From the NCBI RefSeq assembly GCF_056746865.1, contig NZ_CM163382.1: a DNA stretch of 64,000 nucleotides, one strand, 5' to 3'. Position numbers and translations under genes: made by a program. Shown here one piece after another: positions 3,001 through 46,395 of the stretch; position 1 is the stretch's first letter, and each line of letters begins with the position of its first letter. The notes under the pieces are model-generated. The model did no database searches. It was not told the DNA's origin and saw nothing but the letters and a program-made list of their open reading frames with translations.

Positions 3001-6000
3001 GGCGGCCGATGACATTATTAACGCTGCCGAAGCGGGCAATGCGCAAACCATCAGTGGGCAGGTGACGGGTGCCGCGGCGGGCGACACAGTTACCGTTACG
3101 CTGGGTGGCAACACCTACACCGCCACGGTGCAGGCTAATTTAAGCTGGAGCGTTAGCGTGCCGGCGGCGGATATTCAGGCCATCGGCAATGGTAATCTCA
3201 CAGTAAACGCCTCGGTCACTAATGGCGTGGGCAACACCGGCAGCGGCTCGCGCGATATCACGATCGATGCCAATCTGCCTGGCTTGCGGGTCGATACCGT
3301 GGCGGGCGATGATGTTATTAACAGCATTGAGCACAATCAGGCGCTGGTGATAACAGGTAGCAGCACCGGGTTAACGGCGGGAACGGCGTTAACGGTCGAG
3401 ATTAACAACGTTACTTATGGCGCGACGGTATTAGCCGACGGCACGTGGAGCCTCGGTATTCCGGCGGCAGACGTCAGCAACTGGCCTGCGGGTACGGTGG
3501 ATATTACGGTAAGCGGCACCAACAGCGCCGGAACAACCTCTACCATTACCCATCCGGTTACCGTCGATCTGGCGGCGGTCGCCATCACCATTAACACCCT
3601 TTCCGGCGATGATGTGATCAACGCCGTGGAGAAAGGCGAAACGCTGGTCGTAAGCGGCAGCACCAGCGGTGTGGAAGCTGGGCAGACGGTGACCGTCACC
3701 TTTGGCGGTAAAAATTACACCACCACTGTGGAAGCCAACGGCAGCTGGACGGTGAATGTGCCGCCTGCCGATCTCGCTGCGCTACCGGACGGCGCGGGCA
3801 ACGTGCAGGCGAGCGTCAGCAATATTAACGGCAACAGCGCCCAGGCCGATCGCGCGTATAGCGTCGATGCCACCGCGCCGCTTATTACTATCAACACCAT
3901 CGCCAGCGACGATACTCTTAACGTGAGCGAAGCGGGCGCGGGGATCACCATCAGCGGCACCACCACGGCGCAGGCCGGGCAGACGCTGACCGTCACGCTC
4001 AATAACAACACGTACCAGACCACCATTCTCGCGGATGGCACCTGGAGCGTGAACGTTCCGGCAACGGATTTAAGCGGATTAACCGCCAGCAGTTATACCG
4101 TGACTGCGACGGTGAGCGACAAAGCGAGCAACCCGGCAAGCGCCGATCATGCGCTGGCGGTGGACGTTACCGCTCCGGATCTCACCATTAACACCGTCGC
4201 GGGCGATGACATCATCAACGCTATCGAACACGGGCAGGCGCTGGTGGTGAGCGGCACCAGCACGGGCGCGGCGGCAGGCGATGTGGTGACCGTCTCGCTC
4301 AACGGCAAAAACTACACCACCACGCTGGATGCCTCTGGTAACTGGAGCGTCGGTATCCCGGCGGCAGATGTGACGGCGCTGGCAACCGGAAGCCAGACCA
4401 TTACTGCCAGCCTGAGCGATCGCGCGGGCAACAGCGACAGCGCTACCCATAATGTCACCGTTGATCTTAGCGGCCCGACGCTGACCATCAGTACCGTCTC
4501 CGGCGACGACATCATCAATAATGCGGAGAAAACTCAGGATCTGACCATCAGCGGCGGCTCCAGCGGTCTGGCGACCGGCACCACGGTCACCGTGATGTTG
4601 AACGGCCTGGCGTACAGCGCCACCACCGATAGTTCCGGCAACTGGAGCGTTACCGTGCCTGCTTCGGCGGTCGGTGCCCTGGGCGAGGCGGTCTATTCGA
4701 TTAGCGCCAGCGCCACCGACAGCGCGGGCAACAGCGGCAGTACCACCCATACGGTGAATGTCGAATCGCTCCTGCCTGGGGTGATCATTAATACCGTGGC
4801 GGGCGATGACATTATCAACGCCGCTGAAATCGTTGTGGCGCAGACCATCAGCGGTCAGGTCACGGGAACGGCGGTTGCCGGGAATACGGTGATTGTCACC
4901 ATTGGCGGCAATCAATATAACGCCACCGTGCAGTCAGATTTAAGCTGGAGCGTCAGCGTACCGGCGAACGTTTTGCAGGCGCTGGGTAACGGTGAACTGA
5001 CCATCAGCGCCTCGGTGACCAATTCCGCAAATAATACCAGCACCGCGACGCACGATATCGTGATAGATGCCAACCTGCCAGGTCTGCGCGTCGATACCGT
5101 GGCAGGCGATGATGTGATTAACAGCATCGAGCACACTCAGGCGTTGGTGATCACCGGTAGCAGTAGCGGACTGGCGGCGGGCGCGGCGTTGACGGTGGTT
5201 ATCAATAGCGTCACCTACGGCGCAACGGTACTCGCCGATGGCAGCTGGAGCGTCGGTGTTCCGGCGGCAGATGTCACAAACTGGCCTGCGGGAACGGTCA
5301 ATATTGCCGTTTCTGGCACCAATACCGCCGGAACCACAACCAGCATTAGCCATCCGGTCACGGTCGATCTCGCGGCCGTGGCGATTACCATTAACACCCT
5401 TTCCACTGACGATGTGATTAATGCCGCCGAAAAAGGCAGCGATTTGCAGCTCTCCGGCACCACCTCCGATGTGGAAGCGGGGCAAACCATCACCGTTATC
5501 TTCGGCGGCAAAAGCTACACCACCACGGTTGCCGCGGGCGGCACCTGGGGGCTGACAATCCCAGCAGCCGATCTCGCAACCTTGCCTGACGGCGCAGCAA
5601 ACGTCCAGGCCAGCGTCAGCAACGTCGCAGGTAACAGCGCCCAGGCAACGCATGCTTACAGCGTCGATGCCACCGCGCCTTCCGTTACCATCAACACCAT
5701 CGCCACGGACGATATTCTTAACGCCGACGAAGCGGGATCGGCGCTGACCATCAGCGGCACCAGCACGGCGGAAGCCGGGCAGACGGTGACCGTGACGCTA
5801 AACGGCGTCAATTACAGCGGCAACGTGCAGGCAGACGGGAGCTGGAGCGTCAGCGTCCCGACCGGCGATTTAGCTAACCTCACTGCCAGCCCCTATACGG
5901 TGAGCGCAGCGGTCAGCGACAAAGCCGGAAATCCGGCCTCGGCGACGCATAACCTGACGGTGGATCTTGTTGCGCCGGTCGTTACCATTAACACGGTAGC

Positions 6001-9000
6001 GGGCGATGACATCATTAACGCCACAGAACACGGACAGGCGCAGATTATCAGCGGCTCGGCAACGGGCGCGACGACCGGTAACACGGTGTCCGTGACGATT
6101 GGCACGACCACTTACACCACCGTGCTGGACGCCAACGGCAACTGGAGCATCGGCGTGCCTGCCAGCGTGATTTCCGCACTGGCGCAGGGGAATGTGACCA
6201 TTACCGCCACGGTCACCGACTCCGCAGGCAACAGCGGCACGGCCTCGCACACTGTCAGCGTGGCGCTCGGCGCGCCGATACTGAGTATTAACACCATCGC
6301 CGTTGATGACATCATTAATGCCACGGAGAAAGGCGCGGATCTGGCGATTTCCGGAAGCAGCAACCAGCCTGCGGGTACGCAGATAACCGTTACGCTCAAC
6401 GGGCAAAATTACACCACCACTGCCGATGCATCCGGTAACTGGAGCGTGACCGTTCCGGCGTCACGGGTGAGCACCCTCGGTGAAGCCACTTACACGGTGA
6501 CTGCCGCCGCCACTGACGCCGATGGCAACAGCGGTTCCGCCAGCCATAACGTGCAGGTTAATACCGCGCTGCCGGGCGTCACCATTAACGTTGTCGCGAG
6601 CGACGATATTATTAACGCTGCCGAAGCGGGCGCGGGCCAGAGCATCAGCGGGCAGGTGACGGGCGCGGCAGCGGGCGACACGGTAACCGTCACGCTCGGC
6701 GAGGCGACTTACACTGCCACGGTGCAGGCGAATTTAAGCTGGAGCGTCGATGTTCCGGCCTCCGCGCTACAGGCGTTGGGCAACGGTGAACTGACCATTT
6801 CGGCTTCGGTAACGAACAGCGTAGGCAATACCGGCAACGGCACGCGCGAAATCACCATCGACGCGAATCTCCCCGGTCTGCGGATTGACACCGTGGCGGG
6901 CGATGATGTGGTCAACATTATCGAGCACGGGCAGGCGCTGGTGATTACCGGCAGCAGCTCCGATCTGGCAGCGGGCAGCAACGTCACGCTGACCATTAAC
7001 GGGCAAACCTATGTTGCGGCGGTACTGGCGGATGGCTCATGGAGCGTCGGCGTTCCGGCGGTGGATGTCAGCGCCTGGCCTGCGGGGACGGTCACGATTA
7101 CAGCCAGCGGCAACACCACCGCCGGAAACCCGGTGAGCGTTACGCATCCGGTGACTGTCGATCTCACTGCGGTGGCGGTCAGCATCAACGCCATTACTGC
7201 CGATGACGTGATTAACGCTGCCGAAAAAGGCGCGGCGTTAACGCTCTCTGGCAGCACTTCTGGTGTCGAAGCCGGGCAAACGGTCACCGTCACCTTTGGC
7301 GGCAAAACCTACACTGCAAGCGTCGCGGCGAATGGTTCCTGGAGTACCACGGTTCCGGCGACAGATATGGCAGCCCTGCGTGATGGCGATGCCAGCGCGC
7401 AGGCCAACGTCAGCAATGTTAACGGCAACAGCGCCACCACTACCCACGCTTACAGCGTCGATGCTACCGCGCCAACGGTGACCATTAACACCATTGCGGG
7501 CGACGACATTCTTAACGCCGCCGAAGCCGGAGCGGCGCTGACCATCACTGGCAGCAGCACGGCGGAAGCGGGGCAGACGGTGACCGTCACCCTCAATGGT
7601 GCAAACTATACTGGCACCGTACAGACGGACGGCAGCTGGAGCATCAGCGTACCGCCAGCCGACTTAAGCGCCCTGACCGCCAGCAACTACACCGTTAGCG
7701 CGGCGGTGAGCGACAAAGTCGGAAACCCGGCCTCGGTTAATCACAACCTGACGGTGGATACGTCTGTTCCGGTCGTCACCATCAACACGGTGGCAGGCGA
7801 TGATGTGATCAACGCGACGGAACACGCCCAGGCGCAGATTATCAGCGGCTCCGCCACGGGTGCGGCAACCGGCAGCGCCGTGACGGTGACTATCGGCACA
7901 AACACCTTTACCACCGTACTGGATGCCAGCGGTAACTGGAGCGTCGGCGTTCCGGCAAGCGTCGTCTCGGCGCTGGCGAACGGCACGGTGACCATTAACG
8001 CCAGCGTCACCGATGCCGCCGGAAACAGCGGCAGCGCTACGCATCTGGTGACGGTCAATACTGGCCTTCCGTCAATTACCTTTAACGCCATCAGCGGCGA
8101 TAACGTCCTGAACGCCGATGAAAAAGGCCAGCCGTTGACCATTAGCGGTAGCAGTACGGGGTTGGCGACCGGCGCACAGGTTACCGTCACACTCAACGGT
8201 CATAACTACAGCGCTACCACCGACGCGGCGGGCAACTGGACGTTAACCGTGCCGGTGAGCGATCTGGCGGCTTTAGGCCAGGCCAACTATATCGTCAGCG
8301 CCAGCGCCACCAGTGCGGCAGGCAACATCGCCAGCAGCCAGGCGAATTTACTGGTCGATAGCGGCCTGCCGGGCGTCACCATCAACACCGTGGCGGGCGA
8401 TGATATTATCAACGCCGCCGAAGCCGGGGCCGATCAAACCATCAGCGGGGTGGTCACTCGTGCCGCCGCTGGCGATACGGTTACCGTCACGCTGGGCGGC
8501 AACACTTACACCACCACGGTACAGGGCAACTTAAGCTGGAGTATCAGCGTTCCGGCAGCCGATCTCCAGGCGTTGGGCAATGGCGATTTGACCATTAACG
8601 CTTCGGTCACCAACGCGAATGGCAATACGGGCAGCGGTACGCGGGATATCACCATTGACGCTAACCTGCCAGGGCTGCGCGTGGATACGGTAGCGGGCGA
8701 TGATATCGTCAACAGCATTGAACACGGGCAGGCGCTGGTGATCACTGGCGGCAGTAGCGGCCTGAATGCAGGCGTGCCATTGACGATCACGATTAACGGC
8801 ACGGCTTATTCCGCCACGGTACAGGCAGACGGGAGCTGGAGCGTCGGCATTCCGGCGACAAACGTCAGCGCATGGCCTGCGGGGGCGTTAACCGTTGACG
8901 TGGCAGGCCAGAGCAGCGCCGGAAATCCGGTCAGCGTCAGCCATCCGTTCACCGTCGATTTAACGGCGGTGGCAATCAGCATCAACACCGTTGCCAGCGA

Positions 9001-12000
9001 CGACGTAATTAACGCCGCCGAAAAAGGCACCGACCTGACCCTTTCTGGCAGCACCAGCGGAATTGAAAGCGGGCAAACCGTTACCGTCACTTTTGGCGGT
9101 AAAACCTACACTGCAAGCGTCGCCGCCAACGGTAGCTGGAGTGTGAACGTTCCAGCGGCAGATCTGGCAACTCTGCCAGACGGCGCGGCGAACGTGCAGG
9201 CCAGTGTCAGCAGCGCGAGCGGTAACAGTGCCTCGGCGACCCATGCGTACAGCGTTGACGCCAGCGCACCGACGCTCACCATTAACACCATTGCCAGCGA
9301 CGATATTCTTAACGCCACGGAGGCGGGAAGCCCGCTCACCATCAGCGGCACCAGCACCGCCGAAACCGGGCAGACGGTCACCGTAACCCTTAACGGCGCA
9401 ACCTACAGCGGTAATGTGCAGGCAGACGGTAGCTGGAGCGTCAGCGTTCCCCCTTCAGCCTTAGGCGCGCTGACCGCAAGCAATTACACCGTCAGCGCCA
9501 CGGTCAACGACAAAGCGGGCAACCCCGGCAGCACCAGCCATAATCTGGCGGTAGACACCACCGCGCCGGTTCTCACCATTAACACCGTGGCAGGCGATGA
9601 CATCATCAACGATGCTGAACACGCCCAGGCGCTGGTGATTTCCGGCACCAGCAGCGGCGGGGAAGCGGGCGATGTGGTGAGCGTTGTGCTCAACGGCAAA
9701 ACCTACACCTCCACCCTGGATGCCTCCGGCAACTGGAGCGTTGGCGTTCCGGCGGCGGATGTTACGGCGCTGGGTAGCGGCGCACAGACCATCACCGCCA
9801 GCGTCAGCGATCGGGCGGGTAACAGCGATGACGCCAGCCGCACCGTGACCGTCAGCCTCAGCGCGCCAGTGATTAGCATCAACACCATCGCGGGCGATGA
9901 TGTGATCAACGCGACGGAAAAAGGATCTGATCTGACGCTTTCCGGCACCAGCGATCAGCCTGCGGGTACGGCGATCACCGTTACGCTGAACGGACAAAAC
10001 TACAGCGCCACCACCGACGCCTCCGGCAACTGGAGCGTTACCGTGCCTGCCTCTGCTGTCAGTGCGCTGGGCGAAGCCACCTACAGCGTGACGGCGAGCG
10101 TCACCAATGCTCAGGGTAACAGCAGCACCGCCAGCCATAACGTGCAGGTCAATACCGCGCTGCCGGGCGTCACCATTAATCCGGTGGCGACGGACGATAT
10201 TATCAACGCCGCTGAAGCAGGCAGTGCGCAAACCATCAGCGGCCAGGTAACCGGTGCGGCGGCGGGCAGCACCGTCACCGTTGAACTGGGCGGCAAAACT
10301 TACACCGCCACGGTCCAGGCTGATTTAAGTTGGAGTGTGAGCGTACCTGCCGCCGACTGGCAGGCGCTGGGTAACGGTGAGTTAACGGTTAATGCCTCGG
10401 TGACCAACGCCGTTGGCAACACCGGTAGCGGCACGCGCGATATCACCATCGATGCCAGTCTGCCTGGCCTGCGGGTGGATACCGTCGCGGGTGATGATGT
10501 GGTCAATATCATCGAACACAGTCAGGCGCAGGTGATCACCGGTAGCAGCTCCGGCTTTGCGGTGGGCACGGCGCTGAACGTAGTGATAAATAATCAAACT
10601 TACGCCGCCACGGTGCTGGCGAACGGCAGCTGGAGCGTCGGCGTTCCTGCGACGGATGTCAGTAACTGGCCTGCGGGAACGCTGAATATTACCGTTAGCG
10701 GCGCGAACAGTGCCGGAACGCAAACCAGCATTACCCATCCGCTGACCGTTGATCTCACCACCGTCGCCGTCAGCATAAACAGCATCACCAGCGATGATGT
10801 GATTAACGCCGCCGAAAAAGGCGCGGCGCTAACGCTCTCCGGCAGCACGTCCGGCGTCGAAGCGGGGCAAACCGTTACCATTACTTTTGGCGGTAAAACC
10901 TACACCACCACGGTGGCGGCAAACGGTAGCTGGAGCACCACCGTTCCGGCGGCGGATATGGCGGCCCTGCGTGACGGCGATGCCAGCGCCCAGGTGCGGG
11001 TGACTAACGTCAACGGCAACAGCGCCACGGCAACGCATGAATACAGCGTCGATAGCGCCGCGCCAACGGTCACCATCAACACCATTGCCAGCGATAACAT
11101 CATCAATGCCAGCGAAGCGGCGGCGGGCGTAACGGTGTCCGGCACCAGCACGGCGCAAACCGGGCAGACGCTCACCGTCACGCTTAATGGCACTAACTAC
11201 CAGACCACGGTGCAGGCAGACGGCAGCTGGAGCTTAACGCTGCCCGCCAGCGACTTAACCGCACTTGCCAATAACGGCTACACCCTGACCGCCACGGTCA
11301 GCGATTTGGCGGGTAACCCTGGCAGCGCCAGCAAAGGTGTGACCGTCGATACCACCGCGCCCGTCATCAGCTTTAACACCGTGGCGGGCGACGATGTGAT
11401 TAACAGAGTTGAACACACTCAGGCGCAGATTATCAGCGGCACCGCCACGGGCGCGGTGGCGGGCGACCGTCTGGTGGTGACCATCGCCGGGCAGCAGTAT
11501 GTCACCAGCACCGATGCCAGCGGCAACTGGAGCGTCGGCGTGCCTGCCAGCGTGATTTCCGGCCTTGCAGATGGCACAGTGACTATCAGCGCCACTATCA
11601 CCGATAGCGCAGGCAACAGCAGCACCCAGACGCACAACGTACAGGTAAACACGGCGGCAGTGTCGCTCTCGGTCAGCACCATCAGCGGCGATAATATTAT
11701 TAACGCCGCCGAAGCGGGCAGTGCGCTGACCCTGAGCGGCACCGGAACGAACTTTGCCGCAGGTACAGTGGTGACCGTGTTGCTTAACGGCAAAGGCTAC
11801 AGCGCTACCATTCAGAACAACGGGAGCTGGAGTGTGAACGTGCCGGCGGCAGACGTCGCGGCACTGGCGGATGGCACCAGCTACACGGTTAGCGCCTCCG
11901 CCCAGGATAGCGCCGGAAACAGCGCCACGGCCTCGCGCAGTGTGGCGGTGGATCTCACCGCGCCGGTTATCAGCATAAACACGGTTTCAACGGACGACCG

Positions 12001-15000
12001 ACTCAACGCCGCCGAACAGCAGCAGCCGTTAACCCTTAACGGCTCGACCAGCGCGGAAGTAGGGCAGACGGTAACCGTCACCTTTGGCGGCAAAACTTAT
12101 ACCGCCACGGTGGCCGCCAATGGCACCTGGGCGCTGAACGTGCCTGCGGCAGATCTGGCCGCGCTCGGGCAGGGCGCACAGACCATTACCGCCAGCGTGA
12201 ACGATCGCGCCGGTAACCCCGGTCAAACCACGCACGCCCTGACCGTCGATACCGTTGCGCCAACGGTCACCATCGCCACGGTGGCGGGTGACGATATTAT
12301 CAACAACGCCGAACAGCTCGCTGGGCAAACCATCAGCGGCACCACCACCGCTGAAGTGGGCCAGACGGTGACCGTCACCTTTAACGGTCAGAGCTGGACT
12401 GCAACGGTCGGCAGCGGCGGAAGCTGGTCGGTGTTTATTCCGGCGCAGCAGTTTGCCGGATTAAGCGACGGCAGCTACACCATTAGCGCGACGGTTAGCG
12501 ATCAGGCCGGAAACCCTGGTAGCGCCAGCCGTGGCGTGACATTGAACGGCGACGTCCCCTCCGTCACCATCAACACCTTTGCGGGCGATGATGTGGTGAA
12601 TGCGGCGGAGCACGGCTCGTCGCTGGTGATCAGCGGCACCACCACCGCCCCAGTCGGGCAGACGCTGACCCTGACCTTAAACGGCAAAACCTACACTACC
12701 ACGGTACAGACCGGCGGTAGCTGGAGCTACACCCTCGGCAGCGCCGATGTCACCGCGCTGGCGGACGGCAATGCCTACGTGATTAACGCCTCGGTGAGCA
12801 ACGCCATTGGCAACACCGGCAGCAGCAATCACACCATTACCGTCGACCTCAGCGCCCCGGCGATGGGCATTAATATCGATTCCCTGCAAGCCGACACTGG
12901 CCTTAGCTCCAGCGACTTTATCACCAGCGTCAGCCCGGTGGTGGTCAACGGCTCGCTCACCGCCGCGCTTGCCAGTAACGAGACGGCGCAAATCAGTATC
13001 GACGGCGGCGTAACCTGGACCACGCTTACCGTTACCGGCACGACCTGGCGCTATAACGACAGCCGCACGCTGACCGATGGTAACTATCTCTATCAGGTAC
13101 GGGTGATTGACGCAGCGGGCAACGTCGGTGCCACTGACAGCCAGAATGTGGTGATCGACACCATCGCGCCAGATCCAGCAGTAAAAACCATCGCCATCAG
13201 CGCGATCACCACCGATACTGGATTGATTACTAACGATTTTGTCACCAGCGACACGACGCTTGCGGTGAGCGGCACGCTGGGGGCGGCGCTTTCTGCCGGT
13301 GAGTTCGCGCAAATCAGCATTGATGGCGGCACCACCTGGCAGAATCTTTCGGTAAGCGGTTTGACCTGGACATATCTTGACGGGCGTACGCTGACTGACG
13401 GCAACTACAACTATCAGGTACGGGTGATCGACACCGCCGGAAATATCGGCGCGACTGCCAGCCAGATAGTCACCGTGGATACCACCGCGCCGCTGGCGAG
13501 CAAAACCATCGCCATTGCGGGCATTAGCGATGACACCGGGTTAAGCAGCAGCGATTTTGTTACTCGCGACACTACGCTTACTGTGCGCGGCACGCTCGGC
13601 GCGGCGCTGGCGGCAGACGAACGGGCGCAAATCAGCCTCGACGGCGGTGTCACCTGGACCACGTTAACCGTTATCGGCACCAGCTGGAGCTATGCCGATG
13701 GTCGCACACTGACCGACGGCACCTGGAACTACACGGTGCGGGTGGTGGATCTGGCGGGGAACGTTGGGCAGACCGCAACGCAAAACGTGGTGGTCGACAC
13801 CACCAGCCCGGAAGCGGCGAAAAGTATCACCATTACCGGTATCAGCGATGACACCGGAGCCAGCAGCAGCGATTTTATTACCAGCGACACCTCGCTTACC
13901 GTGCGCGGCGTATTGGGGGCGGCGCTCGGCGCTAACGAATTCGCGCAAATCAGTACCGACAACGGCGCAACCTGGGTGAACGTGACCGTCGCCGCAGACG
14001 GCCTTAACTGGAGTTACGTTGACGGACGCACGCTCACCAACGGCACCACCACCTGGCAGGTGCGGGTGGTGGATCTGGCGGGCAACGTTGGCGCAACCGG
14101 CAGCCAGTCGGCGCAGATTGACACCGTGAACCCGGCGCAGGTACTCACCATCGCCAGCATCAGCACCGACACGGGGAGTTCGGCAACTGACTTTATCACC
14201 AGCGATACCTCGCTCACGCTGACCGGTTCGCTGGGGGCGGGGCTTGCCAGCGGCGAAGTGGCGCAGATTAGCCTCGACGGCGGCGCGACCTGGATCACGC
14301 TCACCACCAACGGCACGCAGTGGACCTACACTGACAGCCGCACGCTGACCGACGGCAGCTACGTTTACCAGGTGCGGGTGCTGGATCTGGCGGGGAATAC
14401 TGGCCCGGTGGTGTCGAAAACGGTGGTGGTCGATACGATTAACCCCACCGCGACGCCGACCATTGTGTCGTACACTGATGACGTCGGGCAGCGGCAGGGG
14501 ACATTAAGCAGTTCGCAGGCCACCGACGACACTACGCCGTTGCTGAACGGCGTGCTCTCCGGCCCGCTTGCCAGCGGTGAAGTGGTTTACCTCTACCGTA
14601 ACGGCCTGCTGTTAGGCGCGGTAACGATGGTAGGCGCACTGAACTGGACCTACAGCGACAGCGGGCTGGTGAGCGGTGCCTACACCTACAGCGCGCGAGT
14701 GGTGGATCTGGCGGGGAATATCACCTCCTCCAGTGATTTTGTCCTGATGGTCGATACCTCTATTCCGACCACGCTGGCGCAAATTACCAGCCAGACCACG
14801 CGCGATACTACGCCGATTATCAGCGGGGTGATCACCGCCGCGCTTGCCAGCGGGCAGTATGTTGAAGTGGTGATCAACGGCAAAACCTACACCTCTGAAC
14901 CGGGCGGTGCGGTGGTGGTCGATCCGGCGCACAACACCTGGTATGTACAGTTGCCGGATACCGACGCGCTGGCGGCTTCTGCGACCGCCTATAACGTCAC

Positions 15001-17248
15001 CGCGCAGGTAAAAAGCTCGGCGGGCAACGGCAATAACGCCAATATTAGCAACGGCACGGTGACGGTTAACGCGGCGATTGATTACACACCGACCTGGACC
15101 ACCGCCAGCAAAACCACCGCCTGGGGGCTGACCTACGGCCTCGACACGCACGGAATGTGGACGGTGCTGGCAAACCAGCAGGTAATGCAATCGACTGACC
15201 CACTCACCTGGTCGAAGACCGCGCTGACGCTGTATCAGAGCGGCAACAACTACGCCACCAGCTCCATCGCCGATTACGACCGTAACGGCACGGGCGATCT
15301 GTTTATCACCCGTGATGACTACGGTACAGGCTATATCAACGGCTTTACCAATAACGGCGACGGCACCTTTTCCAGCGCTATTCAGGTCACCGTCGGCACC
15401 CTGACGTGGTACGGCTCGATTGTGGCATTTGATAAAGAGGGCGACGGCTATCTCGACTTCTGGATTGGCGACGCGGGCGGGCCGGACTCCAACACCTTCC
15501 TGTGGAACAACGCAGGTACGCTGGTAGGTAACTCCACTACGTCGAACAGCGGCGGTAGCGCCACGGTGGGCGGGGCGGTGACGGGGTATCTTTCGCTCAA
15601 CGAAGGTTCTGGCGTCGATCTGAACAATGACGGCAGGATCGACCTGGTTCAGCACACCTACAACCTGAACAACTATTACACGCTATCTTCGCTCATCAAC
15701 CAGGGGAATGGCACGTTTGTCTGGGGGCAGAACACCACCAATACCTTCCTGAGCGGGGCGGGTAGTGGCGCTATGAGCAGCAGCGTTTCTATGACCTGGG
15801 CCGATTTCGATGGCGACGGCGATATGGACCTCTTCCTGCCTGCCAGCCAGGGAAGAGCTAACTACGGCTCGCTGTTATTCAACACCAACGGCGTGCTGGG
15901 CAGTCCGGTGGCGGTGGGCGCAACGGCAACCACCTACGCCAGCCAGTTTAGCGTGGCGGTGGACTGGAACCACGACGGCCTGATGGATATCGCCCGTATC
16001 GCCCAGACCGGACAATCGTATCTTTACACCAACGTTGGTGGTGCCAGCAACTGGACACAATCGGCCCTCGGCGGCAGCCAGAGCGGTACCACCAGCGGCG
16101 TGGCGGCAATGGACTACGACTGGGACGGCGCGGTGGATGTACTGGTGACCAAACAGTCGGGCAGCGTGTTCCTGATCCGCAACACCAACACGGTGAGCTA
16201 CGGCACTTCGCTACACCTGCGCATCACCGATCCCAACGGCATTAACGTCTATTACGGTAATACCGTAAAACTGTATAACTCGGCGGGGGTGCTGGTCGCC
16301 ACGCAAATCATTAACCCGCAGTCGGGGATGGGGGTTAACGACACCTCGGCGCTGGTCAACTTCTACGGGCTGAATGCCGGAGAAACCTACAACGCGGTGC
16401 TGATCAAATCCACTGGCACCACCGCCAGCAATATCGACCAGACGGTCAACACCAGCTGGGGCGGCTTACAGGCCACCGATGCCACTCACGCTTACGACCT
16501 CAGCGCCGAAGCAGGCACCGCGAGCAACAATGGCAAGTTCGTCGGCACGGGCTATAACGACACCTTCTTTGCCACCGCAGGTACTGACACTTACGACGGC
16601 TCCGGCGGCTGGGTGTACAGCTCCGGCACCGGAACGTGGCTGGCAAACGGCGGCATGGACGTGGTTGATTTCCGCCTCTCGACGGTGGGCGTGACCGCGA
16701 ACTTAAGCAGCACCGCCGCACAGGCCACCGGCTTTAACACCTCGACATTTACCAATATCGAAGGCATTTCCGGCTCGAATTTTAACGACACTCTGACCGG
16801 CAGCAGCGGCGATAACCAACTGGAAGGGCGCGGCGGCAACGACACCCTTAACATCGGAAACGGCGGTCACGATACCTTGCTCTATAAATTGCTCAACGCC
16901 AGTGACGCTACCGGCGGCAACGGCTCAGACGTGGTGAATGGCTTTACGGTAGGGACATGGGAAGGCACCGCCGACACCGATCGCATTGATATCCGCGAGT
17001 TGTTACAGGGCAGCGGCTACACCGGCAACGGCAAAGCCAGCTACGTCAACGGCGTGGCAACGCTGGATGCGCAGGCTGGAAACATCGGTGATTTTGTCAA
17101 AGTCACCCAGAGCGGCAGCGACACCATCGTGCAGATCGACCGCGACGGCACGGGCGGCACTTTTGCGGCAACTAACGTGGTCACGCTGACGGGCGTGCAT
17201 ACCGACCTCGCCACTTTGCTGGCGAATCATCAGTTGATGGTGGTGTAG
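1..17248 (+). CDS. Giant T1SS-secreted repeat adhesin (SiiE/LapA/Bap-like), 5' partial; 5743 codons in window
   Basis: Reading frame is open from window start (frame 2) to the stop at 17248. About 12.8 kb of ~100-aa Ig-like repeats, then a second repeat class, FG-GAP/VCBS-like motifs, RTX-like Gly/Asp-rich repeats and an acidic C-terminus, with a T1SS ABC transporter gene 4 bp downstream. Confidence 0.9.
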   Translation, partial: IATDDVINAAEKGADLTLSGTTTNVEPGQTVTVTFGGKNYTASVASDGSWTATVPAADLASLPEGSASAQASVSNINGNSASAVHNYSIDSSAPTIIINTVASDNIVNASEADAGVTVSGSTTAEAGQIVTVTLNSPTVQTYQATVQADGSWSINIPAADLEALTDGSHTLTATVNDKAGNPASTTHNLAVDLTVPVLTINTIAGDDIINAAEHGQALVISGSSTGGEAGDVVTVTLNSKTYTTTLDASGNWSVGVPAADVTALGSGPQTVTATVTDAAGNSDNETHTVTVNLAAPTIGINTIATDDVINATEKGADLQISGTSNQPAGTTITLTLNGQNYTATTDAAGNWSTTVPASAVGALGEASYTVTANVTDSAGNSNSASHNVQVNTALPGVTLNPVASDDIINAAESGVAQTISGQVTGAAAGDTVTVTLGGKTYTATVQGNLSWSVDVPAADIQAIGNGDLTVNASVTNGVGNTGSGSRDITIDANLPGLRVDTVAGDDVVNSIEHSQALVITGSSSGLAAGAALTVVINTVTYAATVLADGTWSLGVPAADVGNWPAGTVNITVSGATSAGNPVTITHPVTVDLAAVAISINTVSGDDVINAAEKGADLTLSGSTSGVELGQTVTVTFGGKTYTATVAGDGSWTTSVPAADLAALRDGDATVQASVSNINGNTASATHAYSVDATAPTFAINTIATDDILNAAEAGNPLTISGSSTAEAGQTVTVTLNGVTYTGTVQADGSWSVSVPTADLSNLTASQYTVSASVSDKAGNPATATHGLAVDLTVPVLTINTVSGDDIINAAEHGQALVISGSSTGGEAGDVITVTLNSKTYTTTLDASGNWSVGVPLSDVTALGSGPQTITATITDAAGNSDDASRTVTVNLTAPTIGINTIADDDVINATEKGADLQITGTSNQPAGTTITVTLNGQNYTAITDASGNWSATVPASAVSALGEANYTVTANVTDSAGNSNSASHNVLVNSALPAVTINAVAADDIINAAEAGNAQTISGQVTGAAAGDTVTVTLGGNTYTATVQANLSWSVSVPAADIQAIGNGNLTVNASVTNGVGNTGSGSRDITIDANLPGLRVDTVAGDDVINSIEHNQALVITGSSTGLTAGTALTVEINNVTYGATVLADGTWSLGIPAADVSNWPAGTVDITVSGTNSAGTTSTITHPVTVDLAAVAITINTLSGDDVINAVEKGETLVVSGSTSGVEAGQTVTVTFGGKNYTTTVEANGSWTVNVPPADLAALPDGAGNVQASVSNINGNSAQADRAYSVDATAPLITINTIASDDTLNVSEAGAGITISGTTTAQAGQTLTVTLNNNTYQTTILADGTWSVNVPATDLSGLTASSYTVTATVSDKASNPASADHALAVDVTAPDLTINTVAGDDIINAIEHGQALVVSGTSTGAAAGDVVTVSLNGKNYTTTLDASGNWSVGIPAADVTALATGSQTITASLSDRAGNSDSATHNVTVDLSGPTLTISTVSGDDIINNAEKTQDLTISGGSSGLATGTTVTVMLNGLAYSATTDSSGNWSVTVPASAVGALGEAVYSISASATDSAGNSGSTTHTVNVESLLPGVIINTVAGDDIINAAEIVVAQTISGQVTGTAVAGNTVIVTIGGNQYNATVQSDLSWSVSVPANVLQALGNGELTISASVTNSANNTSTATHDIVIDANLPGLRVDTVAGDDVINSIEHTQALVITGSSSGLAAGAALTVVINSVTYGATVLADGSWSVGVPAADVTNWPAGTVNIAVSGTNTAGTTTSISHPVTVDLAAVAITINTLSTDDVINAAEKGSDLQLSGTTSDVEAGQTITVIFGGKSYTTTVAAGGTWGLTIPAADLATLPDGAANVQASVSNVAGNSAQATHAYSVDATAPSVTINTIATDDILNADEAGSALTISGTSTAEAGQTVTVTLNGVNYSGNVQADGSWSVSVPTGDLANLTASPYTVSAAVSDKAGNPASATHNLTVDLVAPVVTINTVAGDDIINATEHGQAQIISGSATGATTGNTVSVTIGTTTYTTVLDANGNWSIGVPASVISALAQGNVTITATVTDSAGNSGTASHTVSVALGAPILSINTIAVDDIINATEKGADLAISGSSNQPAGTQITVTLNGQNYTTTADASGNWSVTVPASRVSTLGEATYTVTAAATDADGNSGSASHNVQVNTALPGVTINVVASDDIINAAEAGAGQSISGQVTGAAAGDTVTVTLGEATYTATVQANLSWSVDVPASALQALGNGELTISASVTNSVGNTGNGTREITIDANLPGLRIDTVAGDDVVNIIEHGQALVITGSSSDLAAGSNVTLTINGQTYVAAVLADGSWSVGVPAVDVSAWPAGTVTITASGNTTAGNPVSVTHPVTVDLTAVAVSINAITADDVINAAEKGAALTLSGSTSGVEAGQTVTVTFGGKTYTASVAANGSWSTTVPATDMAALRDGDASAQANVSNVNGNSATTTHAYSVDATAPTVTINTIAGDDILNAAEAGAALTITGSSTAEAGQTVTVTLNGANYTGTVQTDGSWSISVPPADLSALTASNYTVSAAVSDKVGNPASVNHNLTVDTSVPVVTINTVAGDDVINATEHAQAQIISGSATGAATGSAVTVTIGTNTFTTVLDASGNWSVGVPASVVSALANGTVTINASVTDAAGNSGSATHLVTVNTGLPSITFNAISGDNVLNADEKGQPLTISGSSTGLATGAQVTVTLNGHNYSATTDAAGNWTLTVPVSDLAALGQANYIVSASATSAAGNIASSQANLLVDSGLPGVTINTVAGDDIINAAEAGADQTISGVVTRAAAGDTVTVTLGGNTYTTTVQGNLSWSISVPAADLQALGNGDLTINASVTNANGNTGSGTRDITIDANLPGLRVDTVAGDDIVNSIEHGQALVITGGSSGLNAGVPLTITINGTAYSATVQADGSWSVGIPATNVSAWPAGALTVDVAGQSSAGNPVSVSHPFTVDLTAVAISINTVASDDVINAAEKGTDLTLSGSTSGIESGQTVTVTFGGKTYTASVAANGSWSVNVPAADLATLPDGAANVQASVSSASGNSASATHAYSVDASAPTLTINTIASDDILNATEAGSPLTISGTSTAETGQTVTVTLNGATYSGNVQADGSWSVSVPPSALGALTASNYTVSATVNDKAGNPGSTSHNLAVDTTAPVLTINTVAGDDIINDAEHAQALVISGTSSGGEAGDVVSVVLNGKTYTSTLDASGNWSVGVPAADVTALGSGAQTITASVSDRAGNSDDASRTVTVSLSAPVISINTIAGDDVINATEKGSDLTLSGTSDQPAGTAITVTLNGQNYSATTDASGNWSVTVPASAVSALGEATYSVTASVTNAQGNSSTASHNVQVNTALPGVTINPVATDDIINAAEAGSAQTISGQVTGAAAGSTVTVELGGKTYTATVQADLSWSVSVPAADWQALGNGELTVNASVTNAVGNTGSGTRDITIDASLPGLRVDTVAGDDVVNIIEHSQAQVITGSSSGFAVGTALNVVINNQTYAATVLANGSWSVGVPATDVSNWPAGTLNITVSGANSAGTQTSITHPLTVDLTTVAVSINSITSDDVINAAEKGAALTLSGSTSGVEAGQTVTITFGGKTYTTTVAANGSWSTTVPAADMAALRDGDASAQVRVTNVNGNSATATHEYSVDSAAPTVTINTIASDNIINASEAAAGVTVSGTSTAQTGQTLTVTLNGTNYQTTVQADGSWSLTLPASDLTALANNGYTLTATVSDLAGNPGSASKGVTVDTTAPVISFNTVAGDDVINRVEHTQAQIISGTATGAVAGDRLVVTIAGQQYVTSTDASGNWSVGVPASVISGLADGTVTISATITDSAGNSSTQTHNVQVNTAAVSLSVSTISGDNIINAAEAGSALTLSGTGTNFAAGTVVTVLLNGKGYSATIQNNGSWSVNVPAADVAALADGTSYTVSASAQDSAGNSATASRSVAVDLTAPVISINTVSTDDRLNAAEQQQPLTLNGSTSAEVGQTVTVTFGGKTYTATVAANGTWALNVPAADLAALGQGAQTITASVNDRAGNPGQTTHALTVDTVAPTVTIATVAGDDIINNAEQLAGQTISGTTTAEVGQTVTVTFNGQSWTATVGSGGSWSVFIPAQQFAGLSDGSYTISATVSDQAGNPGSASRGVTLNGDVPSVTINTFAGDDVVNAAEHGSSLVISGTTTAPVGQTLTLTLNGKTYTTTVQTGGSWSYTLGSADVTALADGNAYVINASVSNAIGNTGSSNHTITVDLSAPAMGINIDSLQADTGLSSSDFITSVSPVVVNGSLTAALASNETAQISIDGGVTWTTLTVTGTTWRYNDSRTLTDGNYLYQVRVIDAAGNVGATDSQNVVIDTIAPDPAVKTIAISAITTDTGLITNDFVTSDTTLAVSGTLGAALSAGEFAQISIDGGTTWQNLSVSGLTWTYLDGRTLTDGNYNYQVRVIDTAGNIGATASQIVTVDTTAPLASKTIAIAGISDDTGLSSSDFVTRDTTLTVRGTLGAALAADERAQISLDGGVTWTTLTVIGTSWSYADGRTLTDGTWNYTVRVVDLAGNVGQTATQNVVVDTTSPEAAKSITITGISDDTGASSSDFITSDTSLTVRGVLGAALGANEFAQISTDNGATWVNVTVAADGLNWSYVDGRTLTNGTTTWQVRVVDLAGNVGATGSQSAQIDTVNPAQVLTIASISTDTGSSATDFITSDTSLTLTGSLGAGLASGEVAQISLDGGATWITLTTNGTQWTYTDSRTLTDGSYVYQVRVLDLAGNTGPVVSKTVVVDTINPTATPTIVSYTDDVGQRQGTLSSSQATDDTTPLLNGVLSGPLASGEVVYLYRNGLLLGAVTMVGALNWTYSDSGLVSGAYTYSARVVDLAGNITSSSDFVLMVDTSIPTTLAQITSQTTRDTTPIISGVITAALASGQYVEVVINGKTYTSEPGGAVVVDPAHNTWYVQLPDTDALAASATAYNVTAQVKSSAGNGNNANISNGTVTVNAAIDYTPTWTTASKTTAWGLTYGLDTHGMWTVLANQQVMQSTDPLTWSKTALTLYQSGNNYATSSIADYDRNGTGDLFITRDDYGTGYINGFTNNGDGTFSSAIQVTVGTLTWYGSIVAFDKEGDGYLDFWIGDAGGPDSNTFLWNNAGTLVGNSTTSNSGGSATVGGAVTGYLSLNEGSGVDLNNDGRIDLVQHTYNLNNYYTLSSLINQGNGTFVWGQNTTNTFLSGAGSGAMSSSVSMTWADFDGDGDMDLFLPASQGRANYGSLLFNTNGVLGSPVAVGATATTYASQFSVAVDWNHDGLMDIARIAQTGQSYLYTNVGGASNWTQSALGGSQSGTTSGVAAMDYDWDGAVDVLVTKQSGSVFLIRNTNTVSYGTSLHLRITDPNGINVYYGNTVKLYNSAGVLVATQIINPQSGMGVNDTSALVNFYGLNAGETYNAVLIKSTGTTASNIDQTVNTSWGGLQATDATHAYDLSAEAGTASNNGKFVGTGYNDTFFATAGTDTYDGSGGWVYSSGTGTWLANGGMDVVDFRLSTVGVTANLSSTAAQATGFNTSTFTNIEGISGSNFNDTLTGSSGDNQLEGRGGNDTLNIGNGGHDTLLYKLLNASDATGGNGSDVVNGFTVGTWEGTADTDRIDIRELLQGSGYTGNGKASYVNGVATLDAQAGNIGDFVKVTQSGSDTIVQIDRDGTGGTFAATNVVTLTGVHTDLATLLANHQLMVV
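2..12850 (+). repeat. Tandem array of ~300-bp (~100-aa) Ig-like domain repeats organised as a ~1.8-kb higher-order unit of six domain subtypes, at least 7 copies
   Basis: Recurring motifs (INAAEKGADLTLSG, TVTFGGKTYTA, INAAEHGQALVISG, INATEKGADLQISG, AQTISGQVTGAAAGDTVTVTLGG, VNSIEHSQALVITG) return in the same order. Antisense artefact ORFs recur at 1621, 3415, 5215, 7009, 8806 and 10600, giving a period of about 1797 bp. Confidence 0.85.
12851..14450 (+). repeat. Second class of ~105-aa repeats in the adhesin (about six copies)
   Basis: Repeated pattern DTGLSSSDFITSDTSLTVRGTLGAALAA.E.AQIS.DGG.TW..LTV.G..W.Y.DGRTLTDG.Y.YQVRV.D.AGN; two more degenerate copies follow to about 15050. Confidence 0.6.
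15270..16150 (+). repeat. FG-GAP/VCBS-like calcium-binding repeats (probable beta-propeller) in the adhesin
   Basis: Spaced Dx[DN]xDGxxD motifs: DYDRNGTGDLF, FDKEGDGYLDF, DLNNDGRIDLV, DFDGDGDMDLF, DWNHDGLMDIA, DYDWDGAVDVLV. Confidence 0.55.
16540..16890 (+). repeat. RTX-like glycine/aspartate-rich nonapeptide repeats preceding the C-terminal secretion signal
   Basis: GTGYNDTFFATAGTDTYDGSGG and GSNFNDTLTGSSGDNQLEGRGGNDTLNIGNGGHDTLLY resemble GGxGxDxUx repeats; the protein ends ...TLLANHQLMVV. Confidence 0.6.
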
Positions 17249-17251
17249 AGA

Positions 17252-19414
17252 ATGAAAAAAAATGCCCAGTCCGTGGAAGCCTGGCTGGAGGCGATGATCG
17301 CCGTGGCGCGTTATTACCGCCTTGATTTTTCTCAGGAGAATGTGCGCGCGACCGTCAACTGGGAGCGCGACAGTAAGCGGGAGGAGTTACTCACCGACAT
17401 GGCGCGGCAGTTGGGGATGGGGCTTCGGCTGGTGGAGTTCTCCACCGACTCGCTCAACCCGTGGCGGCTGCCGTTGATCGCCGTTTTTGATAATCAACAA
17501 ATTGGCGTGATCACCCGCCGTGACAATCACGACAATATCAGCATTCAGTTTAGCGGTGACGAAGGGCTGGAAACTACGCTTAACGTCGCGGATGTTGAGG
17601 ATAAAATCGTTGAACTGGCGCTACTGCGCCCGCTCAGCGCCATCCCTGACGCGCGGGTAGATGACTATATTCGCCCGTATCAGGCGAACTGGTTCTGGAG
17701 CCTTTCGCTAAAAGACTGGCGGCGCTACGGCGATATTATGCTGGCCTCGCTGGTGGCGAACGTGCTGGCGCTGGCGGCGATGATTTTCTCGATGCAGGTT
17801 TACGACCGGGTGGTTCCGGCGCAATCGTACCCGACGCTATGGGTGCTGTTCGCCGGGGTGATGATGGCGATCCTGTTTGAGTTCTGTATGCGCATGGTGC
17901 GCACACATCTTTCGGATGTGATCGGCAAGCGGGCGGATCTGCGCATTTCGGATCGCGTTTTTGGTCACGCATTACGGCTGAAAAATAACGTGCGATCGAA
18001 ATCCACCGGATCGTTTATCTCGCAGATCCGCGAGCTGGAATCGGTGCGGGAGCTGATTACTTCCACCACCATCGGCGCGGTGGCGGATCTGCCGTTCTTC
18101 CTGCTGTTTGTCTTTATTTTATGGATGATCGGCGGCTGGCTGGTGCTGGTGGTTTTGCTGGCGCTGCCGTTATTGGTGATCCCCGGCCTGCTGGTGCAAC
18201 GCCCGCTGGCGCGGCTGGCGAACGAAGGGATGCGCGAGTCGGCGGTGCGTAACGCTACGCTGGTGGAAGCCGTGCAGTCGATTGAAGATATTAAGCTGCT
18301 GCGCGCCGAACAGCGTTTTCAGAATCAGTGGAACCACACCAACGACGTGGCCTCGTCCATCAGCATGAAGCAACGTTTTCTCACCGGGCTACTGCTCACC
18401 TGGACCCAGGAAGTGCAGTCCATCGTTTACGTCGTGGTGCTGTTGGTGGGCTGCTTTATGGTAATGAACGGTGACATGACCACCGGCGCGCTGGTCGGGA
18501 CGACGATCCTGGCTTCGCGCACCATCGCGCCGCTGTCGCAGATATCCGGCGTGCTCTCGCGCTGGCAGCAGGCGAAAGTGGCGCGCAACGGACTTGATGA
18601 ACTGATGAAGCGCCCGGTGGATCAGCCGGAACACGGCAAACTGGTGCATAAAGCGGTGCTACACGGCAATTATCAGTTCAGCAACGCTATCTTTTATTAC
18701 GATGAAGAAGAGAAAATTGCCGATGTGGCGATTGGCAAACTCAACATTCAGGCCGGAGAGAAAATCGCCATTCTTGGGCGCAACGGCGCGGGTAAATCAA
18801 CGCTACTGCAAATGCTCGCCGGAATGCGTATCGCCCAGCAGGGGCAGGTGCTGCTGGATAACATCAGCATCGGTCAGCTTGATCCGGCGGATCTGCGCCG
18901 CGACATGGGGCTGCTGAGCCAGACCGGGAGACTCTTTTTCGGTTCGCTGCGGGAAAACCTGACGATGGGGATGCCGGAAGCCAGCGATGAAGATATCGAA
19001 CGCGCGTTAACCCTCAGCGGGGCGCTGCCGTTTGTGCAGAAGCAGAAAAACGGCCTCAACTACATGATTCAGGAAGGGGGATTTGGCCTCTCTGGTGGTC
19101 AGCGGCAAACGCTGCTGCTGGCGCGGCTGCTCATCTCTCAACCCAATATCGTGCTGCTCGATGAACCCAGCGCCTCGCTGGACGAAATGGCGGAAGCGCA
19201 TTTAATCGAACAACTGAAACAGTGGATTGGCCATCGCACGCTGATTATCGCCACTCACCGCACGGCGATGCTGCAACTGGTGGACCGCATTATCGTGATG
19301 GATCAGGGGCGGATTGTGATGGATGGCGCGAAAGAGGCCATTTTGCGTGAACAGAGCGAACCCACGGCGCGACGGGTGGTGTTGCAGGAGAAGAATAAGG
19401 GGTCTGCCGCATGA
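17252..19414 (+). CDS. T1SS ABC transporter (ATPase/permease, HlyB/LapB-like) with N-terminal C39-like domain
   Basis: 720 aa. Walker A GRNGAGKST, ABC signature LSGGQRQ, Walker B IVLLDEP and H-loop ATHR are present, with hydrophobic segments in the middle. Starts 4 bp after the adhesin stop and overlaps the next gene by 4 bp. Confidence 0.9.
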   Translation: MKKNAQSVEAWLEAMIAVARYYRLDFSQENVRATVNWERDSKREELLTDMARQLGMGLRLVEFSTDSLNPWRLPLIAVFDNQQIGVITRRDNHDNISIQFSGDEGLETTLNVADVEDKIVELALLRPLSAIPDARVDDYIRPYQANWFWSLSLKDWRRYGDIMLASLVANVLALAAMIFSMQVYDRVVPAQSYPTLWVLFAGVMMAILFEFCMRMVRTHLSDVIGKRADLRISDRVFGHALRLKNNVRSKSTGSFISQIRELESVRELITSTTIGAVADLPFFLLFVFILWMIGGWLVLVVLLALPLLVIPGLLVQRPLARLANEGMRESAVRNATLVEAVQSIEDIKLLRAEQRFQNQWNHTNDVASSISMKQRFLTGLLLTWTQEVQSIVYVVVLLVGCFMVMNGDMTTGALVGTTILASRTIAPLSQISGVLSRWQQAKVARNGLDELMKRPVDQPEHGKLVHKAVLHGNYQFSNAIFYYDEEEKIADVAIGKLNIQAGEKIAILGRNGAGKSTLLQMLAGMRIAQQGQVLLDNISIGQLDPADLRRDMGLLSQTGRLFFGSLRENLTMGMPEASDEDIERALTLSGALPFVQKQKNGLNYMIQEGGFGLSGGQRQTLLLARLLISQPNIVLLDEPSASLDEMAEAHLIEQLKQWIGHRTLIIATHRTAMLQLVDRIIVMDQGRIVMDGAKEAILREQSEPTARRVVLQEKNKGSAA

Positions 19415-20586
19415 ACGGACAACTGCAATACAACCGTGGCCTGACTGAACCCCGCTTGCCGCGTTCGGCGCTGGCGGTACGCGTTACCGCTGTGATGCTG
19501 CTCTGTTTTCTCGGCTGGGCGTGGTACTTCCAGCTTGATGAAGTCACCACCGGCAGCGGCACGGTAGAACCCTCCGGGCGCGAACAGGTGGTGCAGTCGC
19601 TGGAAGGCGGAATTCTGTATCATCTCGACGTCAAGGTTGGCGATATTGTTGAACAGGGCCAGCCACTGGCGCAGCTTAACCGCACCAAAACGGAATCCGA
19701 CGTCCAGGAAGCAATGTCGCGGCTGTACGCGGCGCTGGCAACCTCGGCGCGGCTGCGGGCGGAAGTGAGTAATAAACCGCTGGTCTTCCCTGACGAACTG
19801 AATAAATTCCCCGAACTTATCGAGTCGGAAACGGCGTTGTACAACACTCGCCGCGATGGGCTGAACAAAGCCACCACCGGGCTGACGCAGGGGATTAGCC
19901 TGGTCAACCGCGAACTGGCGATGACCCAGCCGCTGGTAAAACAGGGGGCGGCGAGCAGCGTTGAAGTGCTGCGCCTGCAACGCCAGGCCAATGAACTGGA
20001 AAACAAACTCAGCGACGTGCGCACGCAATACTACGTTCAGGCGCGCGAAGAGTTAGCAAAAGCCAATGCGGAAGTGGAAACCCAGCGTTCGGTGATCCGT
20101 GGACGGGAAGACTCCCTCACCCGGCTCAACTTTACCGCGCCGGTACGTGGCATTGTTCAGGACATTGACGTCACCACGGTTGGCGGCGTTATTGCCCCCG
20201 GTGGTAAACTGATGACCATCGTGCCGCTGGATGAGCAACTGCTGATCGAGGCAAAAATCTCCCCGCGCGATGTGGCGTTTATCCATCCGGGGCAAAAATC
20301 GCTGGTGAAAATAACCGCCTACGATTACTCCATCTACGGCGGCCTGCCGGGAGAAGTGGCGGTGATATCACCAGACACCGTGCAGGATGAAGTACGGCGC
20401 GATGTTTATTACTATCGGGTGTACATTCGCACTTTCAGCAACCATCTGGAAAATAAAAGCAAACAGCAGTTTCCGATATTCCCCGGTATGGTGGCGACGG
20501 TCGATATCCGCACCGGCAAAAAAAGCGTGCTGGATTATCTGTTGAAACCCTTTAACAAAGCACAGGAGGCGTTGCGCGAACGATGA
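19411..20586 (+). CDS. T1SS periplasmic adaptor (HlyD-family membrane fusion protein)
   Basis: 391 aa. N-terminal transmembrane helix ([20 protein letters not shown]), long coiled-coil-prone central region, C-terminal beta domain; start overlaps the ABC transporter stop. Confidence 0.85.
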
Positions 20587-23454: not shown

Positions 23455-23472
23455 GCATTTTTTCTCTTTCAA

Positions 23473-24194: not shown

Positions 24195-24365
<171 letters not shown>

Positions 24366-32809: not shown

Positions 32810-32930
32810 GATTGCCTGATGCGCTACGCTTATCAGGCCTACGAGGATCGTGCAATATATTGATTTTGCAAGATTGTGTAGGCCGGATAAGGCGTTTACG
32901 CCGCATCTGGCATGAACAGTGTGCATTTTG
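32810..32930. repeat. REP/BIME palindromic repeats downstream of ybbP
   Basis: gcctgatgcgctacgcttatcaggcctac and gtaggccggataaggcgtttacgccgcatc motifs. Confidence 0.6.
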
Positions 32931-32997: not shown

Positions 32998-33305
32998 TAG
33001 CTACGTTTCCTCAGTTATTCAATAAACTGACGGATCAGTTCCAGCAGCGCGATTAGCGCCTTAAGAACGATGAGAACTGCCTCTCTCCAAATTAGAGCAC
33101 CAGAATCAGCACCACCTGTATCCTGACCAGGACTTAAAAGTACTTTTCCGCACTGCGGTAATCCCTTGAGGCAGTATCACTACTAGCGTCGGGATTGTAT
33201 CGCCAACATAGCTGTTTGAATATGTAGGCATCCTGACTTATAATTCATTTGCTAGATGAGGACTGTTTCATTTCTGCCCGGAACCACCAAGTCTTGGGCG
33301 GAAAA

Positions 33306-33340
33306 AATAAAAAAACCGACTGTCATGTCGGTTTTTTTAT
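33306..33340. terminator. Bidirectional rho-independent terminator downstream of selU
   Basis: aaaaaaaccgac-tgtcat-gtcggttttttt: stem-loop flanked by an A-run and a T-run. Confidence 0.65.
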
Positions 33341-46349: not shown

Positions 46350-46364
46350 ACCTGAATTTACCGC

Positions 46365-46395
46365 AAAAAAAGCCACGGTATAAACCGTGGCAAAA
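46365..46395. terminator. Bidirectional terminator between glxK and allE
   Basis: aaaaaaa-gccacggt-ataa-accgtggc-aaaa. Confidence 0.6.

Follow-up and report, generated by a model that had tools for sequence, protein, structure and literature searches.

The stretch analysed here, called the window throughout, is a sequence of 64,000 nucleotides (nt) from contig NZ_CM163382.1 of NCBI RefSeq assembly GCF_056746865.1, and it carries an ABC (ATP-binding cassette) transporter gene whose N-terminal domain is the subject of this report. The gene is part of a four-gene type I secretion operon that encodes a TolC-like outer membrane protein (OMP), the giant adhesin SiiEA (the presumed substrate of the transporter), the ABC transporter itself and a membrane fusion protein, with ATGA overlaps; the window holds the 3' two-thirds of this operon. 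The transporter gene is 100% identical to the chromosomal gene of Escherichia coli 118UI and of many other strains, and it was found in 962 of 5426 complete E. coli genomes. RefSeq gives the gene order in 118UI as ybaT, TolC-family OMP, siiEA, type I secretion permease/ATPase, HlyD-family adaptor and cueR. The features of the operon that fall within the window are the following.

1..17248, + strand: siiEA, C-terminal 5743 codons (of 6925, codon 1177 being where the window begins), the same sequence as in E. coli 118UI from nt 3531 of its siiEA gene
16799..16939, + strand: RTX (repeats-in-toxin) nonapeptide repeats near the SiiEA C-terminus (GSSGDNQLE, GNGGHDTLL, GGNGSDVVN and neighbours), from a regular-expression scan and Pfam HemolysinCabind
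16928..17236, + strand: type I secretion target domain at the SiiEA C-terminus, uncleaved (TIGR03661 T1SS_VCA0849, residues 394-496 of the last 499)
17252..19414, + strand: ABC transporter gene (type I secretion permease/ATPase), 720 amino acids (aa)
17273..17632, + strand: N-terminal C39-like domain of the transporter, non-catalytic, LapB/LssB type, residues ~8-127
17279..17281, + strand: codon of A10, at the position of the C39 catalytic Cys (HlyB Y9), from alignments; Pro, Ser, Ala or Gly in this column across the family
17498..17503, + strand: codons of Q83 and I84, at the position of the C39 catalytic His (HlyB H83) with a one-residue ambiguity of register, from alignments
17549..17551, + strand: codon of F100, aligned with the catalytic Asp of C39 (kept in HlyB) in the profile-anchored alignment
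17633..17731, + strand: linker with the conserved motif PDARVDxYIxPY, followed by an NWFW elbow helix into the first transmembrane helix, from conservation
17735..18520, + strand: transmembrane domain, residues 162-423, holding the first Cys (Pfam ABC_membrane)
18740..19171, + strand: nucleotide-binding domain, residues 497-640 (Pfam ABC_tran)
19411..20586, + strand: membrane fusion protein (HlyD-family) gene, overlapping the ABC transporter gene (TIGR01843, 327.7 bits)

A first-pass annotation of this DNA had remarked that the first ~210 residues of the transporter contain no cysteine and that the first one lies in the membrane domain, in the motif EFCMRMV. Translation bears this out: the only cysteines of the 720-aa protein are at residues 212 and 401, residues 1-211 are free of them, and Cys212 (codon 17885-17887) sits in EFCMRMV inside the Pfam ABC_membrane region (162-423). 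The same two cysteines are present in four other E. coli alleles of the transporter. The span 17252-17700 singled out in that annotation encodes residues 1-149, which is the N-terminal domain plus linker. As statistical evidence, the absence of Cys was rejected. A Cys-free stretch of 210 aa has a chance probability of ~0.09 at 1.15% Cys, stretches of 150-210 residues have probabilities of ~0.09-0.3 at typical Cys frequencies, and at the protein's own rate of 2/720 the probability is ~0.56-0.66 (0.56 for 210 aa), so that the observation (P 0.09-0.56) amounts to no more than chance. Within the family, the N-domain is Cys-free in 22 of 121 members, and the remainder average ~1.8 Cys at non-catalytic positions. 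The reasoning of the first-pass annotation was sound, but a lack of Cys taken alone is weak evidence in statistical terms; whether the domain is a peptidase is decided by aligning the catalytic residues.

The Pfam C39 model (PF03412) matches residues 12-98 at 16.2 bits in the whole protein and 19.6 bits in the domain alone, both under the gathering cut-off of 22 and thus unusable as proof of membership; evidence for the fold was therefore built from a family profile. With the N-domain alone as query, the matches were mainly short pieces of this one E. coli gene; an exhaustive full-length search was used instead and gave 150 representatives with no more than 50% mutual identity. The N-domains of 51 of them were combined into the profile searched against PDB, and 121 family representatives at 50% identity served for the N-domain column counts. 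The closest solved structure is 3B79 (E = 1e-30), a Vibrio parahaemolyticus domain entitled 'N-terminal peptidase C39 like domain of the toxin secretion ATP-binding protein', and not the HlyB C39-like domain 3ZUA (3e-15); the peptidase domains of ComA, LahT and PCAT1 follow at 1e-10 to 2e-9 (ComA 1e-10). An AlphaFold2 model of residues 1-152 is well packed, with a mean predicted local distance difference test (pLDDT) of 89.8 and a predicted template modelling score (pTM) of 0.80. The N-domain has the papain-like C39 fold, which we regard as established.

A false N-terminus due to a wrongly called start codon was considered and rejected, given that conservation extends from residue ~8 in the 121 relatives and that the model is confident. 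The ATG of the gene lies 3 nt past the siiEA stop codon and has GGTGG upstream of it, which also counts against a wrong start. We observed in addition a 544-aa form of the transporter (P0220, representing 144 sequences on 41 contigs) that matches the window protein with 100% identity; having 544 of the 720 residues, it cannot hold the entire N-terminal region, and it could reflect start-codon calls, frameshifts or real truncations.

We used three independent alignments to locate the catalytic columns. One was made with MAFFT and included HlyB, EhxB and three active C39 transporters borne on plasmids; a second consisted of the HMMER alignments between the family profile and PDB chains; the third was profile-anchored and took in every reference. 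The C39 nucleophile (Cys of the Cys-Gly motif, Tyr9 in HlyB) falls on Ala10 and the following Gly on Trp11 in all three. The catalytic His falls on Gln83 or Ile84, with the register set by which end of the strand is anchored, and in the profile-anchored alignment Phe100 (Phe100-Ser101) takes the place of the catalytic Asp of the Asp-Pro motif. The column of HlyB Trp77 is occupied by Val78. Across the 121 family representatives the Cys column holds Pro, Ser, Ala or Gly, with Pro in most, and none combines a Cys near the Cys column with a His near the His column (0/121). Likewise, no Trp occurs within one residue of the HlyB Trp77 column in any of the 121, and no His occupies the Q83 or I84 column in 114 close relatives. 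A conserved catalytic Cys/His pair, the observation that would have told against the first-pass prediction of a non-proteolytic C39-like domain, was thus looked for by alignment and is absent both here and in the 121 representatives, and that prediction holds, with A10, Q83/I84 and F100 at the triad columns. As judged from the aligned sequences, all three triad residues have been lost and the N-domain cannot be a cysteine peptidase.

It might still be imagined that the domain is a working peptidase with an unconventional nucleophile, such as a Ser/His or Thr pair, that trims SiiEA or a small peptide. In favour of this, the papain-like fold has been preserved and is strongly constrained by purifying selection (see below), and the former site has His93 and Asp103 no more than a few residues away. 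His93, the sole His in the E. coli domain, is however located in an insertion that is missing from 115 of the 121 relatives, all three triad columns carry other residues (Ala, Gln/Ile and Phe), most family members have Pro in the Cys column, and there is no double-glycine leader at the N-terminus of SiiEA to be removed. We consider the probability of such an activity to be close to negligible.

At the level of the whole protein, the transporter scores 836.8 bits against TIGR03375 (type_I_sec_LssB; cut-off 693.1), with residues 10-703 aligned to model positions 2-694, and only 388.8 bits against TIGR01846 (type_I_sec_HlyB), under the cut-off of 725.55. The N-terminal 169 residues alone give 87.3 bits to the LssB model and 18.5 to the HlyB model. 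Close relatives across Enterobacteriaceae are annotated as 'LapB' or 'LssB family', and none has a precomputed Pfam C39 match. Because TIGR03375 was passed, TIGR01846 was failed and the relatives carry LapB/LssB annotations, the protein is a LapB/LssB-type transporter, the type that exports giant surface-retained RTX/Bap adhesins, and is not of the HlyB type. In LapB, the N-domain has neither the C39 Cys nor the Trp of HlyB (Smith et al. 2017/2018, bioRxiv 10.1101/198937; J Bacteriol 2018), and the same is true of the domain in the window, with A10 and V78 at these positions, and of the domains of the 121 representatives. Within type I secretion, the LapB-like transporters whose adhesin substrates have an N-terminal retention module make up a subgroup of their own (bioRxiv 10.1101/198937), and a 'LapB-type N-terminal CLD' (C39-like domain) has been reported in LssB (PMC6959600).

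These results bear on the possibility that the domain is strictly of the HlyB type, binding the RTX region of its substrate by the surface that HlyB uses (including the Trp77/His83 stack) in a toxin exporter akin to that of hemolysin, a reading invited by the published gene name 'hlyB28'. The TIGR01846 score is far under its cut-off while TIGR03375 passes; the HlyB W77, H83 and Asp columns hold V78, I84 and F100; no family member has a Trp within one residue of the W77 column; 3B79 is a closer structure than 3ZUA; and the substrate, an adhesin of 6925 aa, bears a BapA retention module and is no pore-forming toxin. We therefore regard a strict HlyB-type domain as improbable.

The presumed substrate is named 'BapA-related adhesin SiiEA' in RefSeq (6925 aa) and matches NCBIfam adhesin_SiiEA at 508.7 bits. 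Its N-terminus is a BapA prefix-like module (Pfam BapA_N, 71.6 bits, residues 5-132), its body is built of Ca-tandemer and Ig-like (Big_13) repeats and carries FG-GAP repeats towards the tip, and its C-terminal region combines the RTX block (Pfam HemolysinCabind, 26.1 bits; cut-off 23) with the domain targeted by type I secretion (TIGR03661, 36.8 bits; cut-off 17.6). The protein contains a single Cys, C65 in the N-terminal module, and 0 in the 5743 residues encoded in the window. These features, as predicted from the sequence, fit export of an unfolded protein by means of a C-terminal signal. The first-pass annotation had anticipated an RTX or adhesin substrate with an uncleaved C-terminal signal rather than a bacteriocin-type leader, and the RTX block, the TIGR03661 match and the lack of a double-glycine leader agree with it. 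The operon as a whole has the composition of an LssB/LapB-type operon, in which genes for a fusion protein and a TolC-like OMP accompany that of a giant adhesin with an N-terminal retention module and a C-terminal signal.

The locus corresponds to O-island 28 of enterohaemorrhagic E. coli (EHEC) O157:H7 (Niu et al. 2025, PMC12758282), in which the genes are named z0608 (tolC28), z0609/z0615 (rtxA28/rtxB28), z0634 (hlyB28) and z0635 (hlyD28) and which is needed for early adherence and colonisation (PMC12758282). The C39 domain of the transporter goes unmentioned there, the term 'C39' occurring 0 times in PMC12758282. The O157:H7 ABC transporter gene is the same gene at the same locus, with 94.5% DNA identity and 6 aa differences from the window protein. 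In O157:H7 siiEA is split (RefSeq: 'frameshifted; internal stop') and its pieces are treated as two RTX proteins, z0609 and z0615 (PMC12758282), whereas siiEA of the window strain is a single open reading frame (ORF) of 6925 aa. In O157:H7 FRIK2455 (L009:1-2997) siiEA is marked as a pseudogene, and the ABC transporter and fusion-protein genes are intact; one of the siiEA fragments is without the C-terminal signal.

We compared the window allele of the N-domain with four E. coli alleles (3.4-5.6% DNA difference) and obtained ratios of nonsynonymous to synonymous substitution rates (dN/dS) of 0.03-0.06 at a dS of ~0.35, similar to those of the nucleotide-binding domain. Purifying selection on the domain is strong, and the domain is not decaying. 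The idea that it is a functionless evolutionary relic, an N-terminal appendage carried along by the transporter, would be in keeping with the lack of a known experimental function for LapB-type N-domains and with the fact that the type I ABC transporters PrtD and HasD work without an N-terminal domain (review PMC8277102). Against it stand the dN/dS values, comparable to those of the nucleotide-binding domain, the retention of the domain across 121 diverse representatives, the presence of W11 in 113 of 114 sub-clade members, the confident and well-packed AlphaFold2 model and the finding that the HlyB C39-like domain appears to be needed to recruit and tether unfolded substrate (review PMC8277102). 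A relic is, in our estimation, highly unlikely.

Among the 114 sequences of the enterobacterial sub-clade to which the protein belongs, W11 is present in all but one and W71 in 98. The linker motif PDARVDxYIxPY is nearly invariant in these sequences, and D133, R135, D137, Y139, P142 and W147 are at least 95% conserved; W147 also occurs in 116 of the 121 family representatives. Sub-clade members adjoin BapA_N adhesins, in some cases with an OMP gene between the adhesin and ABC transporter genes. W11 sits where the Gly of the C39 Cys-Gly motif was, and both W11 and W71 are absent from LapB proper and from HlyB. It is conceivable, if rather doubtful, that this SiiEA/BapC-like sub-clade uses the dead cleft anew, with W11 and W71 forming a sub-clade-specific docking site for the SiiEA C-terminus and thereby a third mode of substrate handling by C39-derived domains. 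This sub-clade detail is the sole part of the picture that we did not find described, and we take it as a hint rather than a finding.

The explanation that we consider very probable as a whole is that the operon is that of O-island 28 and that the transporter, as the exporter of SiiEA, bears a LapB/LssB-type, non-catalytic C39-like domain whose ancestor was the double-glycine peptidase (C39) found in bacteriocin exporters. Under this explanation, the transporter dimer, the fusion protein and the dedicated TolC-like channel would recognise the uncleaved C-terminal domain of unfolded, almost Cys-free SiiEA and, using ATP, would thread it outward with the C-terminus first. The RTX repeats would then fold with Ca2+ outside the cell, and the N-terminal BapA-type module would stay behind as a plug or anchor. 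The C39-like domain would cut nothing; by analogy with HlyB, it would most likely act in the cytoplasm as a platform on which the unfolded C-terminal part of SiiEA docks or is chaperoned, and it may also help to assemble the secretion complex. What the domain binds, and when, we infer from the HlyB system.

Several points weigh against this explanation. The E. coli N-domain is a divergent family member, with 17% identity to 3B79, and a single-sequence phmmer search of the domain against PDB gives a marginal match to PCAT1 only (E = 0.045), with 3B79, HlyB and ComA becoming visible only through the family profile; owing to this divergence, the residue equivalences at the His column may be off by one residue. 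We found no experiment that shows what any LapB-type N-domain binds, and the suggested docking or chaperone role is carried over from HlyB; the Trp by which HlyB contacts its substrate is missing from this domain. In the HlyB/D structure, the C39-like domain reportedly contacts the tail of the fusion protein. The cytoplasmic part of the fusion protein that precedes the membrane helix is only ~20 aa long here (window 19411-19500), compared with ~58 in HlyD, and this contact may not carry over.

The missing catalytic residues of the domain are a true but ordinary feature of a known transporter family, already published and annotated. The classification does place the SiiEA/O-island 28 exporter of pathogenic E. 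coli in the LapB/LssB class of adhesin exporters despite the published name 'hlyB28', and it predicts surface retention by the N-terminal module rather than release of a toxin. Its significance beyond correct annotation is small, although W11, W71 and the PDARVD linker offer targets for mutagenesis of the role of LapB-type C39-like domains.

At the downstream border of the operon, the ATG of cueR overlaps the stop codon of the fusion-protein gene (ATGA at 20583-20586). E. coli genomes that lack the island match the window from 20487 on, that is, from the last ~96 nt of the fusion-protein gene just upstream of cueR. This points to a deletion remnant in island-less strains such as K-12 and would place the upstream region of cueR within the 3' end of the fusion-protein gene. 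Further downstream, a 600-aa ORF with a TTG start occupies window positions 21670-23472 on the - strand; the 118UI annotation has only a 350-aa 'YadA-like family protein' there (window 21670-22719) and leaves 22720 to ~23820 unannotated, and the ORF may be a degraded or mis-started trimeric autotransporter. An Rfam scan of the window gave no match in or near the siiEA/ABC transporter locus. The four matches above gathering score that it did give correspond to commonplace small RNAs or repeats of E. coli and have no relation to the transporter.

24241-24318, - strand: Rfam naRNA4
32835-32877, - strand: Rfam ES036
33252-33340, + strand: Rfam AgrB, adjoining dinQ
46361-46427, + strand: Rfam STnc480

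Among known systems, the C39 peptidases of bacteriocin and peptide exporters cut an N-terminal double-glycine leader off small peptides, and those compared here (PCAT1, ComA and LahT, and the plasmid-borne PedD, LagD-like and Salmonella plasmid ABC transporters) carry the Gln, Cys-Gly, His and Asp-Pro motifs, all of which are absent from the E. coli domain. The two-step system of the LapA type has a di-alanine LapG site after the retention module and is controlled by the protease LapG and the c-di-GMP receptor LapD, whose genes usually lie nearby. SiiEA contains exactly one TAAG, at residues 97-100 (upstream of the window; L008:15686-15697) and followed by a Gly-rich hydrophobic stretch, which matches the LapG consensus as a sequence motif. 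In a locus-level search of 118UI, neither lapG nor lapD is annotated in the ~15 kb upstream or 20 kb downstream, and neither was found beside the orthologous loci in Enterobacter (L013) and in the P0038 contigs.

The likeness to HlyB that the first-pass annotation had drawn stands in part. Like the HlyB domain (3ZUA; HlyB/D complex 7SGR), the domain described here has a C39 fold without the catalytic Cys at the N-terminus of a type I exporter, and the substrates of both systems have RTX repeats and an uncleaved C-terminal signal. HlyB, however, retains the catalytic His and Asp, with Trp77 stacked on His83 (review PMC8277102), whereas the E. coli transporter has I84/Q83, F100 and V78 at these positions, and the remainder of the likeness gives way to the LapB/LssB assignment. 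The C39-like domain of HlyB appears necessary to recruit and tether unfolded substrate (review PMC8277102), and its docking or chaperone role with HlyA was demonstrated by Lecher et al. 2012, as reviewed in PMC8277102. The HlyB system exports a released toxin; SiiEA is a surface-retained adhesin.

The closest known counterparts are LapB of P. fluorescens (LapEBC) and LssB of Legionella, with 3B79 as the solved homologous N-domain. The family consensus motifs D-P-L-L, present in LapB proper and in 3B79, and G-L-P read E-A-W-L and T-V-N in the E. coli protein. The E. coli transporter belongs to a divergent enterobacterial 'BapC-like' sub-clade with its own near-invariant tryptophans, W11 and W71.

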